From: Nitrospirota bacterium
GTDB lineage: Bacteria > Nitrospirota > UBA9217
Length of the DNA stretch: 64,000 nucleotides
Direction of reading: 5' to 3'
Assembly: GCA_963749655.1 (NCBI GenBank)
Contig: CAVVOB010000029.1
Span: 25,169-89,168, forward strand
Part shown: in pieces, positions 2 to 25,836 of the stretch
Layout of the letters: each line of letters opens with the position of its first letter
Numbering within the stretch: position 1 is the first letter of the stretch
Notes under the pieces: model-generated
What the model was told of the DNA's origin: nothing
The model's database searches: none
What the model saw: only the letters and a program-made list of their open reading frames with translations
Program-made: the position numbers and the translations under genes

Positions 2-376
2 CCTAACGACGTTCCCACATTAATAGAAATGATGGGTGATAATGATATGGCAGTACACGTAGACGCCGCACGAAAGCTGATGAAACGAGGAAAAGAACCT
101 TTTCTAACCGCATTACATCATAAAAACCCAAATGTACGTGCGGTGGCAGCTCACTCTTTAGGTCTTCTCCACGACCCATCAGTTCAGGCTGCTTTAATTG
201 AAAGCGCAACTGATCCTGATCAATATGTTCGTATGTGGTCGGCGTTTTCGCTTGGGGTAATAGGTGATGAGAACGCGCTGCCCACTCTAACTGCTCTAAC
301 GAAAGATAAAGTGGAAGTTGTTCGAGTTGATGCACAAGAAGCGATAGCCAAACTCGAAAAACGATTGAAACACTAA
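2..376 (+). CDS. HEAT-repeat protein (5'-partial cassette gene)
   Basis: Repeated 'NVRAVAAHSLG', 'YVRMWSAFSLG', 'VVRVDAQEAI' motifs; frame is open to the window edge; stop lies in the attC R'' box. Confidence 0.8.
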   Translation, partial: PNDVPTLIEMMGDNDMAVHVDAARKLMKRGKEPFLTALHHKNPNVRAVAAHSLGLLHDPSVQAALIESATDPDQYVRMWSAFSLGVIGDENALPTLTALTKDKVEVVRVDAQEAIAKLEKRLKH

Positions 377-428
377 CTAATCGTTCGAGTCCCGCGCTTA
401 CTGCGCGGGGCTCAACTCGTCGTTATCG
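371..428 (+). repeat. attC site 1
   Basis: CACTAAC ... GAGTCCCGCGC-TTACT-GCGCGGGGCTC ... GTTATCG. Confidence 0.85.
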
Positions 429-430
429 TC

Positions 431-586
431 TCAATCTGTTGCCGGTCCGTATGGTGGCAAATTATTTTCTTTGAGGTGCTTTTCCCACGCAACCTGATCC
501 CATGGCACATAGCCTGGATACGGCTCAATTTTAAATGCCTGATCCGTCAGGGGATCCGAAGGAAATAATTGTAATTGTTCACCCAT
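431..586 (-). CDS. 51-aa peptide in a reverse-oriented cassette (N-terminal QLQLF motif)
   Basis: Manual translation MGEQLQLFPSDPLTDQAFKIEPYPGYVPWDQVAWEKHLKENNLPPYGPATD*. The ORF fills the space between attC1 and attC2 almost exactly. No clear RBS. Confidence 0.6.
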   Translation of the reverse strand: MGEQLQLFPSDPLTDQAFKIEPYPGYVPWDQVAWEKHLKENNLPPYGPATD

Positions 587-588
587 GA

Positions 589-645
589 CGATAACCATAA
601 TTTCGACAACGACACGCTTCGCGGCGTGTCAAATTGTCGTTAGGC
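589..645 (+). repeat. attC site 2
   Basis: CGATAAC ... GACACGC-TTCGCG-GCGTGTC ... GTTAGGC. Confidence 0.85.
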
Positions 646-4290: not shown

Positions 4291-5667
4291 GGGTCTTCCG
4301 GGTTTAGTGTGGGTCATTTATAGCATCTGGGAGAAAGGAAGTCAGCACCTTCAGCTGAAGATACTCTTTATCCTTTATGCCATAAGCCCGACGTTGAATT
4401 ACCCGAATCTTGTTGTTTAATCCCTCCATGAACCCGAGGGAGACCTTGTTGTCGGGATGACAGTAACTGATGATTCCATCCCAGTGGCGTTCGATCATTG
4501 CAGCAAACTTTTGAAACGGTTCCAAGCGGCTCCAGCGAAGCTGTTCTTTCCAGTTCTCAAAGAACTTCCGTGCCCAGGTCGGATTGTTGTATGACCACAG
4601 CTGGCCGAAAGATTCCTTGAGTAAATAAGCCTTGTGAAGGCGGCTATTGGCCTTGAGTAGGAGTTTCAAAGCCCGCTTGCCATTCATATCCAGGTTGTCC
4701 CGGTTTGAAAGCAGCGTATAGCGCTGGCCCTTGATGAACCGTCGTTCTTTGTCATTGACACGTTTGTATTCGCTCCGCCTAACCTCATCCAAGGCGAACG
4801 ACAGGTGCCGGAGTACATGGAACTTGTCGAAGACGAGCTGAGCGTCCGGTGCATGGTGTTTAGTAGCGTTTCTGAAAGGCTTCCACATATCCATGACCGC
4901 CAGCTTGATGCCCTTCGATATATCCGGTCCAATTTCATTGAAGAAGAGGTCTAAATCCTCTTCCTTGCGGCCGTTGCCGCCAAGCCATATCGGGCGCTGC
5001 TGATCCAGATCGGCAACAACGATTGCATAGGTATGGCCCTTACGGATGGATATTTCATCGATGCCGATCACGCGAAGGTCCTTGGACGGCGGGTGCTTCG
5101 CCAGCAAATCACGCATGTAGCTTTTCTCGATGCGCTGGACCTGGTCCCAGCTTAAGCGGTTCATCTCAGCTACTCGCGATATGGACATTTCACGACACTG
5201 ACGCCCAATGGCCTGTTCGAACCGTCCGGTGAATCTCTTGGATGATGCCAGCCAGGCAAGGGTCTCTCGCTTCACGGCTTGGCACCTCCGGCAGAATATG
5301 CGGCGATACTCGAACTCGAGAGGATCCGAATGCCGCCGGAGTCCAGATCTCTGACCCGATGGTTGACGCGATCGTAGAAGCCTCGTCGGCTACTGCCACA
5401 GGAACAGGTAGTTTTTTTTGCCGTCGTCGCAGGATGATAATACGACCACCGGGATCGTCCGGGTCATCCTTTAACCGTGACTGGGCTCGAAATCCCGGAA
5501 AGCTATAGAGCGAGCTAAGGGTGGTCTTCTTCATAAGGCAAGACGATACCCTTTGCACCGAAACGTGTCAAGTTATCAAAGAGCAATAAATCGTTAAAAG
5601 CAGCTTCAAATGGGCCTTATATCCATATATATGCTTCTTAGTGACCCACAGGAAAGTCAGAAGATCC
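4291..5667 (-). mobile_element. ISL3-family insertion sequence
   Basis: 26-bp imperfect terminal IRs (GGGTCTTCCGGGTTTAGTGTGGGTCA / GGATCTTCTGACTTTCCTGTGGGTCA); 8-bp direct repeat ATAAATAT at 4283-4290 and 5668-5675. Confidence 0.93.
4304..5534 (-). CDS. ISL3 transposase (split over frames)
   Basis: 'IGIDEIS', 'VMDMWKPF', 'FDKFHV', 'EGLNNKIRVIQRRAYG' motifs. The N-terminal part is in other frames, with shifts near 5415 (A8 run) and 5320. Confidence 0.88.
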
Positions 5668-5833: not shown

Positions 5834-7623
5834 CTGTAGGAAAAGTCATTTCATGCTATAATGACGCCATCGAAACGCAGTACGGAAGCATCAAAACCCC
5901 TCACCCACGGGAGCGCGCATGGCGAAATACAAACATTACGATTATTCCCAAGGCAAATTCATTCCGATCAACTTCGACAAACAGATCCTCCACGGCACCT
6001 TCGAACACACCCTCCATTATCTCATCGACAACGACATCGACCTGTCCGCTTTTGACCTCCGGTACAAGAACGACGAAACCGGCGCTCCGGCCTACGATCC
6101 CCGGATTCTCTTAAAGATCGTCCTCTACGCCTATTCCAAAGGAATCACCTCAAGCAGAAAGATCGCCGACTGCTGCAACGATAACGTCGTCTTCATGGCC
6201 CTTTCCGCCGACACCCGGCCCCACTTCACGACAATCGCCGACTTCATCTCCTCCCATGACCAGGAAACGATGAACCTCTTCCTCGAAGTCCTCCTGATCT
6301 GCGACCAGATGGGCCTGATCGGCAAAGAGATGTTCGCCGTAGACGGCTGCAAACTCCCCTCGAACGCCTCGAAGGAGTGGAGCGGTACCAAGGAAGAACT
6401 CGAACATAAGAAAGAGAAGATGGAGAAGGCCATCCGGGAGATGATCGCGCAGCACAAGGAGCGGGACAAAACCGAGACCGACCAGGCGGTCATCGAGAAA
6501 GAAGAACAGTACATTTCAACGCTCAAGGCGAAGATCAAGAAGATAAAGACCTGGCTTGCTGAAAACGACGACAAGCCCGGCAGCAAGGGCAAGCCCCGGA
6601 AGAGCAACATAACCGATAACGAAAGCGCCAATATGAAGACTTCGCACGGGGTTGTCCAGGGATACAACGGCGTAGCCATGGTGGACAGCAAACACCAGGT
6701 AGTGGTCCATGCAGAGGCGACCGGAGACTCCGAATCCGCAATACTGAAACCCATGGTCGAAGGAACCCGGGAGAACTTCGAGACAATCGGCAAAGAAGAG
6801 GACATCTTCAAAAAGACCAAACTGACGACCGACGCCGGCTTCCACTCCGAAAAGAACGTGGAGATGGTAATCGAGGACGGCATCGACGCATACATCGCCG
6901 ACAACAAGTTCCGACACCGCGATCCCCGGTTTGCCGAAGCGGACAGACACAAGGAGAGGTTCAACAAGGAAGTTGCCAAACGATTCGACCGAGCCATCAT
7001 CTTTCAACCGCGCGACTTCACGGTAAGCCCGGACAAAAGCTTCTGCATCTGCCCGGCCGGGAAACGGATGTACAAATGCGGCAATGCGATCCATAATGGA
7101 CTACAGGCGATCAAGTACCACGGAACAAAACGAGATTGCATCCCTTGTCAGCTCAGGGCGAAGTGCATGAAGAACCCCGACGTGACCGAAACCCGTCAGT
7201 TCGCCCACTTTACCGGAAGGACCGACCAACAAGAACAAGACGTTCACGCAGAAGATGCGGGAGAAGATAGACTCGGTAGCCGGCAAGCTGATCTACGGAC
7301 GAAGAATGGCGACGGTCGAACCGGTCTTTGCCAATGTCCGGAGCAGCCTCGGCCTCGATCACTTCAGCCTCAGAGGGAAAAAGAAGGTGAGCATTCAGTG
7401 GCGGCTCTACTGCGTCGTGCACAATCTATTGAAGGTGCATCGATACGGGTTTGGATTCGCGGGTAGTTGAGGTAAAGGGAAGCCGAAAGGGAAAGAAAAT
7501 GCAGTAGCGAGATCGACCAGGACCGATTGAATCACGCAAAAGCTCAAATCAAGAACTCACCCTGATAAAAACTTGCTACCGGGGATCAATGATGCTTTTC
7601 AAATCGACTTTTTCTACAGACTC
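5830..7623 (+). mobile_element. IS1182-family insertion sequence
   Basis: Terminal IRs GAACCTGTAGGAAAAGTC / GACTTTTTCTACAGACTC; flanked on both sides by GTT (5827-5829, 7624-7626). Confidence 0.88.
5919..7470 (+). CDS. IS1182 transposase (one frameshift near 7227)
   Basis: 'GAPAYDPRILLKIVLYAY..G..SSRKI', 'AVDGCKL', 'DAGFHS'; the C-terminal 'RRMATVEPVFANV...HNLLK' is in the next frame (7255-7470). Confidence 0.88.
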
Positions 7624-8685: not shown

Positions 8686-8742
8686 GTATAACATGCCGGT
8701 CCACAGCGACGCGCCTTGCGGCGCGTGACCGGCTCGTTAGTT
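8686..8742 (+). repeat. attC site 8
   Basis: GTATAAC-ATGCCGGTCCACAGCGACGCGCCTTGCGGCGCGTGACCGGCTC-GTTAGTT. Confidence 0.92.
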
Positions 8743-8961
8743 TTCAGGATCACTCGGCAATTCATGCCAATGCGTAAATGCGTTTATATCCTGCGCTCCG
8801 GCACGTCCAATGCAAGACCAATATGCGTCTTTCGTCCACATAGACAATGAACCAAGTGCTTTAACGCAACCATGCGGCTCAAATGAAAAATGCCTGTTGA
8901 TATTAACAAGAGCCACAACGGTATCAGGAGAAGGTAGTTTCTCTTTTATAGAAATCCACAT
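8737..8961 (-). CDS. DUF551-like (phage-type) small protein in a reverse-oriented cassette
   Basis: N-terminal 'WISIKEKLP' and C-terminal 'THWHELPSDP' match the DUF551 pattern; GAAAGG SD; stop codon lies in the GTTAG core site. Confidence 0.75.
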   Translation of the reverse strand: MWISIKEKLPSPDTVVALVNINRHFSFEPHGCVKALGSLSMWTKDAYWSCIGRAGAQDINAFTHWHELPSDPEN

Positions 8962-8983
8962 ACTGCCTTTCCGCGCCCTGGAA

Positions 8984-9042
8984 AACTAACCAGAGTGCTC
9001 GACACCCGCGCTAAAGTCGCGGGGTTCAGCTTCGCGTTAACT
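8984..9042 (+). repeat. attC site 9
   Basis: AACTAAC ... CCCGCG-CTAAAGT-CGCGGG ... GTTAACT; R'' complements the cassette start GTTAGTT. Confidence 0.85.
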
Positions 9043-9401: not shown

Positions 9402-9462
9402 CGTTAACAACCGCGTCCACAGCGACGCGCCAGAAGGCGGCGCGTGACCCGCGTCGTTATGC
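9402..9462 (+). repeat. attC site 10
   Basis: CGTTAAC-AACCGCGTCCACAGCGACGCGCCAGAAGGCGGCGCGTGACCCGCGTC-GTTATGC. Confidence 0.92.
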
Positions 9463-9490
9463 ACCCTTCTAACCCGAGAGGCCCTAGCTA

Positions 9491-9937
9491 ATGGCAAACC
9501 AACTTTTCTTCGCATGTCTCATGCTTGCTACAGGCATAGGTATCCCTGTTATGGCGGCGCTAAGCGCAACGTTGGGCACCAAGTACGGAAGCCCAGCGTT
9601 CGCCGCCTCTGTCTTGTTTCTGGTAGCGCTGTCTATTTCGGTTGCTTTCCTTTTCGCTGTTGAGGGCGGCCTGAGGCCATTCCCGAAAACATCGCTGCCG
9701 TTCTATTTCTACTCAGGTGGTGTGTTCGTAGCCTTTTACGTCCTCAGCGTCACCTGGGTAGCCCCACAATTCGGTGTCGGAAATGCTGTGGCTTTTGTAC
9801 TTCTAGGCCAGCTCATATCCATGGCGGCCATAGATCAATTCGGGCTGTTGGGTGCTCCAACGCATGCCATCACTTTTCAGAGGTCTATCGGTCTCATTCT
9901 GATGTCGGTCGGCGTTTTTTTGGCCGTACGCCGCTGA
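9491..9937 (+). CDS. DMT family (YdcZ-like) small transporter
   Basis: Five TM segments; 'P.FGVGNA...VLLGQLIS..AIDQFGLLG' signature. Confidence 0.85.
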   Translation: MANQLFFACLMLATGIGIPVMAALSATLGTKYGSPAFAASVLFLVALSISVAFLFAVEGGLRPFPKTSLPFYFYSGGVFVAFYVLSVTWVAPQFGVGNAVAFVLLGQLISMAAIDQFGLLGAPTHAITFQRSIGLILMSVGVFLAVRR

Positions 9938-9952
9938 TAACATGCGCGGGGC

Positions 9953-9971
9953 GCATAACAATTCGTTAGTC
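9953..9971 (+). repeat. Collapsed (19-bp) attC site 11
   Basis: GCATAAC-AATTC-GTTAGTC. R'' complements the cassette start GTTATGC, but the L boxes and stem are missing. Confidence 0.7.
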
Positions 9972-10171
9972 CAGCATCGCGATGACACAGTAGCTTTCAT
10001 CCGCTCCCACTTCTCCGTTGCATGGTATGAATGTTCAGCACCACTTGTGCCTTTTTAGAGGCTGCAGAAGCATTGCTTATCGCCGCACTCCGTCCTAAAT
10101 TCAACAAAAATGCCGGGTATAAGACGCCTGCCTCTTTCTTCTCCGAATCCGCAAAGCTCGCTCTTGCATAA
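9966..10171 (+). pseudogene. 3' fragment resembling a GIY-YIG nuclease
   Basis: 'AFIRSHFSVAWYEC' then, after a frameshift at a T5 run, 'LEAAEALLIAALRPKFNK'. E..LI....P.FN is the C-terminal GIY-YIG motif; no N-terminal part is present. Confidence 0.45.
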
Positions 10172-10192
10172 ATCAGAATATCGTTGTAAAAT
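10164..10192 (+). promoter_or_regulatory. Putative sigma70 promoter of the TA pair
   Basis: TTGCAT-17 bp-TAAAAT. Confidence 0.55.
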
Positions 10193-10223
10193 CATCATAA
10201 AAAAGATGAAGGAGGCGACTTTA

Positions 10224-10454
10224 ATGCCAATGAAAGTTAAAGAAATCGAGGAAGAGGCACTTCGGCTTAGCTCGCATGAACGGGCTCTCCTTGTTGAGCA
10301 CCTAATTGGGAGCTTGGAACCCGATGAAGATCCTGAAGCTGAGCGTTCTTGGATTGAAGAAGCCGAACGCCGCTATCAGGATTACAAGGCAGGAAAAGTA
10401 AAAACTATACCGGCTGAACAGGTTTTCAAAGATGCCCGCTTGAAATTAAAATGA
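10224..10454 (+). CDS. Addiction-module antitoxin (TIGR02574-like)
   Basis: 'EALRLSSHERALLVEHLIGSL...WIEEAERRY...G.VKTIPAEQVF'; GGAGG SD; overlaps the toxin start. Confidence 0.88.
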   Translation: MPMKVKEIEEEALRLSSHERALLVEHLIGSLEPDEDPEAERSWIEEAERRYQDYKAGKVKTIPAEQVFKDARLKLK

Positions 10455-10756
10455 TGCCAGTCGACTTTCTTCCAGAGGCTGATCAGGAAATGATCGAGGC
10501 TGCTCGCTACTATCAGTCTCTGTCTTCGGGCTTAGGTGATGATTATCTCGCCGAGGTCGAACACGCTGTTCAATCCATAGCATCGTCCCCCCAAACATGG
10601 CCGGTTCTTGAAGGTAATTTGAGAAGACGGCTTATCAAAAGATTCCCCTTCGGTATTTTATACAGAATTGAGCCTGACAAAATCCTTATAATTGCTGTTG
10701 CACATCTGCGCAAGAAACCCGGATATTGGAAGAAAAGAATCAGTCAAAGTGAATAG
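10451..10756 (+). CDS. RelE/ParE-family toxin
   Basis: 'FLPEADQEM.EA..YY...GLG', 'RRRLIKRFPFGILY', 'IIAVAHLRKKPGYW'. Confidence 0.9.
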   Translation: MMPVDFLPEADQEMIEAARYYQSLSSGLGDDYLAEVEHAVQSIASSPQTWPVLEGNLRRRLIKRFPFGILYRIEPDKILIIAVAHLRKKPGYWKKRISQSE

Positions 10757-10763
10757 GCTGTCA

Positions 10764-10822
10764 TTCCAACCTGCGCGTCCACAGCGACGCGCCAGAAGGC
10801 GGCGGTCAGGCGCGCGTTAAAA
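10764..10822 (+). repeat. attC site 12 (last of the array)
   Basis: TTCCAAC-CTGCGCGTCCACAGCGACGCGCCAGAAGGCGGCG ... GCGCGC-GTTAAAA. Confidence 0.85.
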
Positions 10823-24723: not shown

Positions 24724-25836
24724 TTATCCGAGACGTTTTCTGAACCTGAAGGCACTGAACCAGATGACGGCGACTCCCAGTATGAGCAGCCCGGCCATCT
24801 GGGGCCAGAGGATGGAAAGCCCGTTCCCTTTCAGGAAGAGGCCCCTGATGATGACCAAAAAAAAGCGGAGGGGGTTTGCAAATGTCAGGTACTGAAAGAA
24901 GTCGGGCATGTTTTCGATGGGAAACATGAATCCCGACAGGAGCACGGCAGGCATATAGAACAGAAAACCCGCCATGAGCGCCTGCTGCTGGGTGCGGGCG
25001 ATGGTGGAAATAAAAAGGCCGATGCCGAGCACCGAGAGAAGGTAAATAGCTGTGGACAGCGGCAGCAGCACCAACGAGCCCCTTATCGGGATGTTGAATA
25101 TCAGGACGCCGAAGACGGTAATGAGCGCCATGTCCAGGAAGCCGATGATAGCGAACGGAATGGTCTTGCCGAGGATGAGCTCCAGGGGCGTAAGCGGCGT
25201 GACCATAAGCTGTTCCATGGTGCCGACTTCGCGCTCCCGCACGATTGCCATGGACGTGAGCAGGAGCGACGTAAGCATGATCACCATGGCGATGACGCCG
25301 GGAACATTGTAATTCTTGCTCTTGAGTTCGGGATTGTACCAGGCCCGCGTCCGTACGTCCAGGGGGAGCGGCCGACCTCCGCCTGCCTTGTCCGCTGCGA
25401 ATTGCCCGATGATCCTGCTTGCGTAATCCATGGCAACGGTGGCGGTGTTCGAATCCGTCCCGTCGACGATGACCTGAATGGTCGTCGGCTTCCTGCGGCG
25501 GAGGTCTGCGGAAAAACCGCGGTTGATCTGGATGGCCATGGTCGCTCTGCCGCGGTCGAGAAGGTCTTGCAGGGCTGCTGCTGAGTCAGGCCGCGAGGTT
25601 ATGCGAAAATAGCCCGAAGCGGTCATCCGCTGGACAAGCTCCCTGCTTTCCTGGGATCGGTCGAGGTCATAGATCGCCGTGGGAACGTTGTTCACGTCGG
25701 TCGTGACCGCGTAGCCGAAAACCAGGGTCTGCAGAAACGGGACCACAAAGACGATGGCCTTCATGCGGCGGTCCCGGAGGATGTGGATGAACTCCTTGAT
25801 GACCATCTGTTTTATGCGTTCAATGCTTTTGCGCAT
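24724..25836 (-). CDS. ABC-2 type permease
   Basis: 'SMAIVREREVGTMEQL.VTP', 'LLSGFMFPIENMP'. Confidence 0.9.
   Translation of the reverse strand: MRKSIERIKQMVIKEFIHILRDRRMKAIVFVVPFLQTLVFGYAVTTDVNNVPTAIYDLDRSQESRELVQRMTASGYFRITSRPDSAAALQDLLDRGRATMAIQINRGFSADLRRRKPTTIQVIVDGTDSNTATVAMDYASRIIGQFAADKAGGGRPLPLDVRTRAWYNPELKSKNYNVPGVIAMVIMLTSLLLTSMAIVREREVGTMEQLMVTPLTPLELILGKTIPFAIIGFLDMALITVFGVLIFNIPIRGSLVLLPLSTAIYLLSVLGIGLFISTIARTQQQALMAGFLFYMPAVLLSGFMFPIENMPDFFQYLTFANPLRFFLVIIRGLFLKGNGLSILWPQMAGLLILGVAVIWFSAFRFRKRLG

Follow-up and report, generated by a model that had tools for sequence, protein, structure and literature searches.

A stretch of 64,000 nucleotides (nt) from a metagenome-assembled genome (MAG) of a Nitrospirota bacterium (positions 25,169 to 89,168 of contig CAVVOB010000029.1, assembly GCA_963749655.1; here C29:25169–89168), which we refer to as the window, contains at positions 423–639 a genuine integron gene cassette of 217 bp, located in an array of attC sites beside an integron integrase gene (intI). 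This micro-cassette is filled by one open reading frame (ORF) of 51 or 55 amino acids (aa), which runs antisense to the array and to the attC of its own cassette. We regard this micro-ORF as a real small gene, an orphan that is currently silent, and assign a probability of about 0.6 to this reading. Its translation contains close to the N-terminus the pentapeptide QLQLF, which resembles the motif used for docking on the DnaN clamp.

The cassette and its borders

The 4.27-Mb source MAG consists of 39 contigs (completeness 86.6%, contamination 5.8%). A scan of C29 for AAC...GTT pairs with complementary arms yielded 13 short attC-like sites (49–55 nt), and a covariance model (R1) built from the alignment of these 13 array sites detected 23 attC sites at C29:13662–35990, all of them on the plus strand and 10 outside the seed. 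The minus-strand matches of R1 on this contig were solely five weak echoes of the same sites (E-values of 0.0019–0.81). The table derived from the attC positions contains 22 cassettes, and together with the integrase match upstream this layout is that of a chromosomal integron. The features needed here are as follows, coordinates without a contig name being those of the window:

C29:9153–9992, minus strand: match to the integron integrase intI (TIGR02249, 317.9 bits, cut-off 265), upstream of the array and on the opposite strand
371..428, plus strand: attC of the preceding HEAT-repeat cassette (R1 49.2 bits, E 8.8e-15)
422–428, plus strand: R' box GTTATCG of the HEAT-repeat attC, whose G|TT crossover is the start of the micro-cassette
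423..639, no strand assigned: the micro-cassette, 217 bp, number 13 of 22, 46% G+C
431..598, minus strand: ORF of 55 aa (MVIVMGEQLQLFPSDPLTDQAFKIEPYPGYVPWDQVAWEKHLKENNLPPYGPATD), ATG at 596–598, stop TGA at 431–433
563..577, minus strand: QLQLF codons CAATTA CAATTA TTT, residues 8–12 of the 55-aa form and 4–8 of the 51-aa form
584..586, minus strand: internal ATG, giving the 51-aa form (MGEQLQLF...)
589..645, plus strand: the micro-cassette's own attC (R1 54.2 bits), without a minus-strand match
589–595 and 639–645: R'' box CGATAAC and R' box GTTAGGC of this attC, oriented like all other array sites

The unit extends from the TT of GTTATCG (423) to the G of GTTAGGC (639). On the bottom strand, the preceding attC (371–428) folds into a DNA hairpin of −15.4 kcal/mol (z −5.3 versus shuffles), and the cassette's own attC (589–645), which has the lowest G+C content of the 23 array sites (0.49), into one with a z-score of −3.2 versus shuffles. 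In the alignment, both flanking attC sites share with other array sites an extra C at a common position of the left arm, and this position together with the strand-specific R1 scores fixes the orientation of both. The cassette's own attC shares the orientation of all the others in the array, and the ORF therefore really runs antisense to it.

Independent support for the borders came from metagenomes. The region was contained in 12 sequencing runs, all of DNA and with small shares (0.05–0.19), and four runs were examined by read mapping. In contigs from four sediment metagenome runs, the HEAT-repeat cassette and the GmrSD_N cassette that follows the micro-cassette are present in other contexts, at 90–99% identity. 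These contigs diverge into unlike sequence at the predicted borders, namely at 424–427 on the HEAT side and at 639–642 on the GmrSD_N side, where the GmrSD_N cassette itself starts at 639–640. The bin 481–560 of the micro-cassette interior had no cover in any of the four mapped runs, and a single low-depth contig (run X2, depth 2.5, short side of 28 nt) carries a lone attC directly before the GmrSD_N cassette. The R1 scores, hairpins and break points thus bear out the initial annotation, which had proposed from the sequence a micro-cassette between two attC sites with an ORF in reverse orientation.

In a sample of relatives comprising 20 stretches with 18 arrays, 70 attC sites and 50 cassettes, the smallest cassette measured 430 bp, so that a cassette of 217 bp is exceptionally short. 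Its sole ORF of at least 31 aa is the antisense one, and the single promoterless ORF in sense orientation that is usual for such cassettes was not found.

The antisense reading frame

In its 55-aa form (minus strand, 431–598), the micro-ORF translates as MVIVMGEQLQLF. The first ATG (596–598) abuts the complement of the R'' box of the cassette's own attC, and the initial codons ATG GTT ATC G.. are attC sequence. The ORF spanning the cassette at 431–586, as annotated initially with the start MGEQLQLF, is the same frame read from the internal ATG. With a start at one cassette border and a stop at the other, an intact small gene fits better than a deletion remnant of a larger gene. Such a remnant was set aside, HMMER searches at all lengths having yielded no longer relative.

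When the attC was kept and the 160-nt interior was shuffled, an ORF of at least 55 aa inside the cassette arose in 32.7% of 5000 dinucleotide and in 17.9% of 5000 mononucleotide shuffles, so that the length alone is not significant. A codon log-odds model was trained on 23 cassette-filling ORFs of the array by comparing the true frame with the five other frames and was applied in leave-one-out mode. The micro-ORF scored 12.0 bits, compared to 9.2±5.2 bits for 392 true 55-codon segments (69th percentile) and −0.4±7.1 bits for 218 stop-free wrong-frame segments, 2.8% of which reach 12.0 bits. Among chance ORFs of at least 50 aa, this score was reached by 2 of 2779 from the dinucleotide and 3 of 1624 from the mononucleotide shuffle. 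Splitting the score under a base-composition null (22 genes, the transposase being left out) gave an amino-acid term of 6.7 bits, which none of 2178 shuffle ORFs reached, and a synonymous-codon term of 3.0 bits, which was reached by 6.6% of the shuffle ORFs. The remaining five frames of the interior all contain stops (3–4 in each of the three plus-strand frames) and score −10.8 to −30.6 bits. Gene-like codon and amino-acid usage is the sole property of the ORF that is clearly beyond chance, and chiefly because of it we consider that the micro-ORF is, or recently was, a gene.

The array holds one further very small cassette, which also contains a reversed ORF:

8737–9036, no strand assigned: cassette 20, 300 bp, the sole other very small cassette in the array
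8737–8961, minus strand: sibling ORF of 74 aa, the best ORF of cassette 20, with a full-length match to Pfam DUF551 (PF04448; E 2e-7, 32.2 bits, cut-off 22)
8984–9042, opposite in orientation to the ORF: own attC of cassette 20 (33.1 bits, the weakest site of the array)

The sibling ORF also matches three PHROG families (best PHROG 7704, E 2e-5). It is packed like the micro-ORF: the stop, to which the preceding R' box contributes its TTA, is at the 5' border of the cassette, and 23 nt separate the start from the attC of cassette 20. The array thus does contain mini-genes that are reversed and tightly packed. A pattern scan and tblastn found no phage relatives of the sibling ORF, and between the micro-ORF and DUF551 there was neither a Pfam match up to E 1 nor a BLASTP alignment of the two peptides.

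Several observations weigh against a real gene, among them the outcome of the homology searches. A word-indexed search of 5.8 billion clusters returned no candidates, and HMMER against 1.84 billion representatives gave only one match, to a repetitive, Pro/Arg-rich sequence of 198 aa (P0001), which we rejected as spurious because of its low complexity. Six-frame searches yielded nothing below an E-value of 0.04 in 63 genomes of the order and nothing below 0.0136 in 400 genomes of the phylum, and the ten matches in the phylum at E 0.0136–0.044 are about what chance predicts for per-genome E-values. Pattern scans of species-representative genomes and JGI metagenomes gave no match, tblastn against phage and plasmid records had best E-values of 3 and 2, the peptide matched nothing in Pfam, PHROGs, NCBIfam, PADLOC and PDB and nothing usable in the ESM Atlas, and the genome contains no paralogue at the protein or DNA level. 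The initial annotation had counted the lack of a homologue conserving the ORF or its motif against its own proposal, and none was found in these protein, genome, metagenome, phage and plasmid searches. In IMG/VR, the 11-mer WEKHLKENNLP (window 443–475) occurs exactly in three viral contigs, within a Cys-rich protein of 372 aa (L019:2653–3771). The protein is unrelated, and the word, though long for chance, is probably a chance match of the 8-mer pattern scan. With a 55-aa query such searches detect only relatives above about 45% identity, gene callers easily overlook mini-ORFs in reverse orientation, and integron cassette genes are commonly orphans.

Beyond the absence of relatives and the ORF length readily reached by shuffling, the first ATG sits at the foot of the attC hairpin, and reversed ORFs are rare among relatives: of 43 sampled cassettes shorter than 2 kb, one has an antisense ORF as its longest, and all 43 contain a sense ORF of at least 77 aa. 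The fold of the peptide itself is uncertain (predicted local distance difference test, pLDDT, of 46–50 in the co-fold described below), and its recognition score by a protein language model is low (1365). No sigma-70-like promoter was seen on the minus strand at 598–1087, nor on either strand within 423–700, with the proviso that promoter types of Nitrospirota may differ. By eye, GGAG, GAGG or AGGA was not seen upstream of either ATG. Because only about 10 of the 23 array genes are preceded by such a Shine-Dalgarno motif, again judged by eye, its lack is weak evidence. The cassette is too tight to accommodate a promoter for the gene, and none was seen, so that the gene is most likely silent cargo where it is placed; its translation would depend on an antisense transcript extending into it.

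The QLQLF motif and rival explanations

The clamp-binding motif is defined as Q-phi-x-[L/M]-[F/L], its third position varies greatly, and in Hda it lies in a disordered N-terminus (PMC11139829, accessible part); elsewhere, the consensus is given as QL(S/D)LF (PMC9690074, accessible part). The clamp-binding likeness pointed out in the initial annotation holds: QLQLF carries the preferred residue wherever the motif is specific (positions 1, 2, 4 and 5) and stands 3–7 residues from the free N-terminus, followed by PSDPL, a Pro-rich stretch. Among the six-frame ORFs of the genome, QL.LF occurs 62 times in 6,637,586 residues, corresponding to about 5e-4 expected per 55 aa, a rate that has to be read knowing that the motif was chosen after the fact. 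A chance origin becomes easier because QLQL represents a tandem duplication of CAATTA, which adds to the points against a functional motif. The QLQLFP codons also take part in a 12-nt inverted repeat (460–471/559–570, 92% complementary, 87 nt apart), which pairs them with the KENNL codons and forms the base of the minimum-free-energy (MFE) fold of the sense strand, a fold no better than those of shuffles.

Among those ORFs of the genome to which a name could be given, QLxLF stands near a terminus in a MutS fragment, a SprT-like protein (N-terminal), a DDE transposase (C-terminal), a PurF-like protein and YceD, and QL.LF is internal in a spermidine-synthase-like protein and a histidine kinase. 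MutS and transposases are clamp binders, and SprT-like proteins plausibly are as well, so that about half of the occurrences near a terminus fall in plausible clamp clients. The SprT-like protein (C21:106218–107048) begins with MSTALSQKQLDLF and is a candidate for an N-terminal clamp motif, and the PurF-like amidophosphoribosyltransferase (C34:27756–29153) ends with ...MLQLGLFDKE, an unexpected site for such a motif.

We co-folded the peptide with the genome's own DnaN (C28:312565–313677, using an alignment of 30 order-level sequences), which is 74–89% identical to DnaN of 58 other genomes of the order. The score was 0.39 (runs of 0.34, 0.42 and 0.39) compared to 0.00 for all three controls, with the runs agreeing in at least 43% of the contacts and a partner pLDDT of at least 45. 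Of 80 solved complexes, 58 attain the mark for a pass, compared to 2 of 110 mismatched pairs, and passes at ≤0.60 comprise only 7 of the 80 solved complexes and both passing mismatches. Because clamp–peptide complexes are well represented among solved structures, the pass may be memory. The co-fold is weak support and raises the odds of docking on DnaN a little, no more. The mobile clamp-binding peptide proposed in the initial annotation retains its motif fit, and gains little from the co-fold. Given a real protein, docking on DnaN via the N-terminal QLQLF would be its single most likely activity, if a tentative one; taken overall, such docking is unlikely. On the clamp, the peptide would compete with polymerases and repair proteins, and it might be a small replication-interference or clamp-recruitment factor of mobile-element origin.

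In an elaborated and equally speculative form, which we consider improbable, the cassette would encode a 'clamp plug' of 51–55 aa, a minimal mobile peptide with little beyond QLQLF. Its gene, which is packed opposite to the array strand between the 5' border of the cassette and the cassette's own attC, would be kept silent by this orientation in the chromosomal integron. Once the gene is transcribed, the peptide would occupy the DnaN cleft and stall or redirect replication.

It is quite possible, at somewhat less than an even chance, that the small protein is real while QLQLF is incidental and its role unrelated, e.g., that of a small phage-type regulator or accessory protein like its DUF551 neighbour. 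This would agree with the tandem hexamer encoding QLQL and with the presence of QL.LF at the ends of the PurF-like protein and YceD, which have no known clamp role, and inside the kinase and the spermidine-synthase-like protein; the co-fold pass is weak, and without homologues there is no motif conservation to show. Against it stand the controls at 0.00 in the co-fold and the optimal residues at four specific positions, near a free N-terminus before a Pro-rich stretch, which is a typical setting of clamp-binding motifs (PMC11139829, accessible part). Alternatively, the frame may have arisen by accident in a short, AT-rich insert; the cassette would then be non-coding (ORF-less) and either represent inert filler or carry a signal at the level of DNA or RNA. 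Cassettes without an ORF have been described, some of them with promoters on either strand or small RNAs (PMC8876359, accessible part), and such a cassette would be in keeping with a length of 217 bp compared to at least 430 bp in the 50 sampled cassettes, with an ORF of this size in 18–33% of the shuffles, with the lack of homologues in any search and with a frame preceded by neither a Shine-Dalgarno motif nor a promoter. We still regard an ORF-less cassette as a rather unlikely, if serious, competitor. Gene-like usage occurs in only 0.07–0.18% of chance ORFs and in 0 of 2178 by the split test, and cassette 20, likewise small, contains a real gene in reverse orientation. Promoter or RNA functions likewise find little correspondence, since 423–700 lacks a sigma-70-like promoter on both strands, the RNA structure of the interior is not beyond that of shuffles (z −1.24 for the plus and +0.17 for the minus strand) and no Rfam family was found in the window.

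Very improbable by comparison is an element of the sense strand, which would insulate the GmrSD_N defence cassette from the HEAT cassette or weakly terminate transcription between them as an intrinsic terminator. A weak terminator-like hairpin at 437–459 on the plus strand, followed by AATTATTTTC and located inside the 3' end of the minus-strand ORF, is present in the MFE fold. However, its stem has only 3 G-C pairs and is missing from the centroid fold, a lenient terminator scan returned 9 sites in 3 kb versus 3.5±2.0 in shuffles, and a sense-strand element would not account for the coding signature on the opposite strand. The probability remaining beyond a real gene and a chance ORF falls to a decayed remnant or such a sense-strand signal. 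The real, silent, orphan gene in reverse orientation is the reading we prefer.

The surrounding array and known systems

The first ~11 kb of the window have a G+C content of 41–49%, the remainder one of 53–62%. The intI match of C29 (positions 1501–2340 of locus L002) contains one in-frame TAA, the longest ORF there comprising 244 aa; the integrase may be inactivated, or the TAA may be an error of the MAG. The genome contains 47 matches to the 58-nt attC family, which are distributed over the C29 array, five sites beside a second intI on C38 (a second integron), a cluster on C19 without integrase, and singletons. The family is present in 60 of 64 genomes of the order, with up to 63 matches per genome, which suggests from these sequence counts that uncultured Nitrospirota hold large cassette pools.

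Three insertion-sequence transposases lie within array cassettes (window 4304–5275, minus strand; 5919–7466, plus strand; C29:22640–23737, minus strand) and belong to an ISL3 type, a DUF772/DDE type and a 5-copy element, the transposase of the last containing an internal GRQLGLFED. The cassette next to the micro-cassette (640–1869) encodes a GmrSD_N (DUF262-type) protein of 352 aa with PADLOC matches to NsnA (E 4.3e-35) and PD-T4-2_A, a defence-type gene in the form of an integron cassette. It recurs in four sediment metagenome runs at ~95–99% identity with a 6-base insertion after 813. The last detected cassette (9457–10816) carries a sense-oriented toxin-antitoxin pair (Unstab_antitox and ParE_toxin, 10110–10756) together with an ORF for a YdcZ-type exporter, so that this 1360-bp cassette holds two or three genes, or an attC was missed.

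The micro-cassette shares with cassettes of sedentary chromosomal integrons a 3' attC of the array's own family, G|TT borders, its place in a 22-cassette array by intI and neighbours that are shuffled in other samples. It differs in that its sole ORF is antisense and in its length of 217 bp, compared to 430 bp and up. If the ORF is real, it would be among the smallest coding integron cassettes and would show, together with its DUF551 sibling, that chromosomal arrays store reverse-oriented mini-genes; as gene callers and cassette surveys skip such genes, the 'dark matter' of cassettes would be under-counted. If it is not, the element is an ordinary, unusually short ORF-less cassette. Like the ORF-less cassettes of Tansirichaiya et al. 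2019 (reviewed in PMC8876359, accessible part), it is very short and has a classical attC and no sense ORF. Unlike them, it is filled by an antisense, gene-like frame and has no promoter-like site on either strand.

Some toxin-antitoxin cassettes of Vibrio are reverse-oriented. Those of Vibrio chromosomal integrons have a promoter of their own (PMC13108822, accessible part) and resemble the micro-cassette in carrying a gene independent of the Pc promoter of the array, whereas the micro-cassette has one ORF, no partner gene and no visible promoter. The two adjacent genes with a promoter that characterize a toxin-antitoxin system were not found in it, PADLOC and Pfam gave no match for the micro-ORF, and the actual ParE/antitoxin pair of the array is, unlike the micro-ORF, in sense orientation.

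Among clamp-binding proteins, Hda likewise has an N-terminal clamp motif (PMC11139829, accessible part), and a toxin acting in this manner has a precedent in SocB of Caulobacter, which uses the usual clamp motif to block replication (PMC9690074, accessible part), whereas the micro-ORF comes without an antitoxin. Neither protein resembles the micro-ORF in sequence, and docking of the latter is suggested by a weak co-fold. Gp168 of phage Twort is a small beta-clamp inhibitor that reportedly sits in the DNA channel and not in the motif cleft. RipA of S. pneumoniae is a small DnaN-targeting protein and part of a two-gene system (PMC12795458, accessible part). Both are small mobile-element proteins aimed at DnaN, as is proposed here for the micro-ORF peptide, but have no homology to it. 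Should its motif dock on DnaN, integrons would carry replication-targeting peptides, and an uncultured phylum would have supplied a natural clamp ligand of 13 residues.

Phages also contain attC sites and cassette arrays (Qi et al. 2023, PMC9892861), the main text of that study making no mention of antisense, opposite, reverse or DUF551. The micro-cassette differs from these in being part of a bacterial chromosomal array and in having an ORF for which no phage relative was found. The initial annotation had alternatively considered a captured phage micro-gene stored in silent orientation; direct evidence of a phage origin was not found for the ORF, and storage of a small gene in silent orientation has a parallel in the reversed DUF551 cassette, which belongs to a phage-associated family. 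If the 'clamp plug' were true, it would represent the first case of an integron cassette encoding a clamp-targeting effector and would point, together with the reversed DUF551 cassette, to a traffic of 'backward' phage-type mini-cassettes into bacterial arrays.

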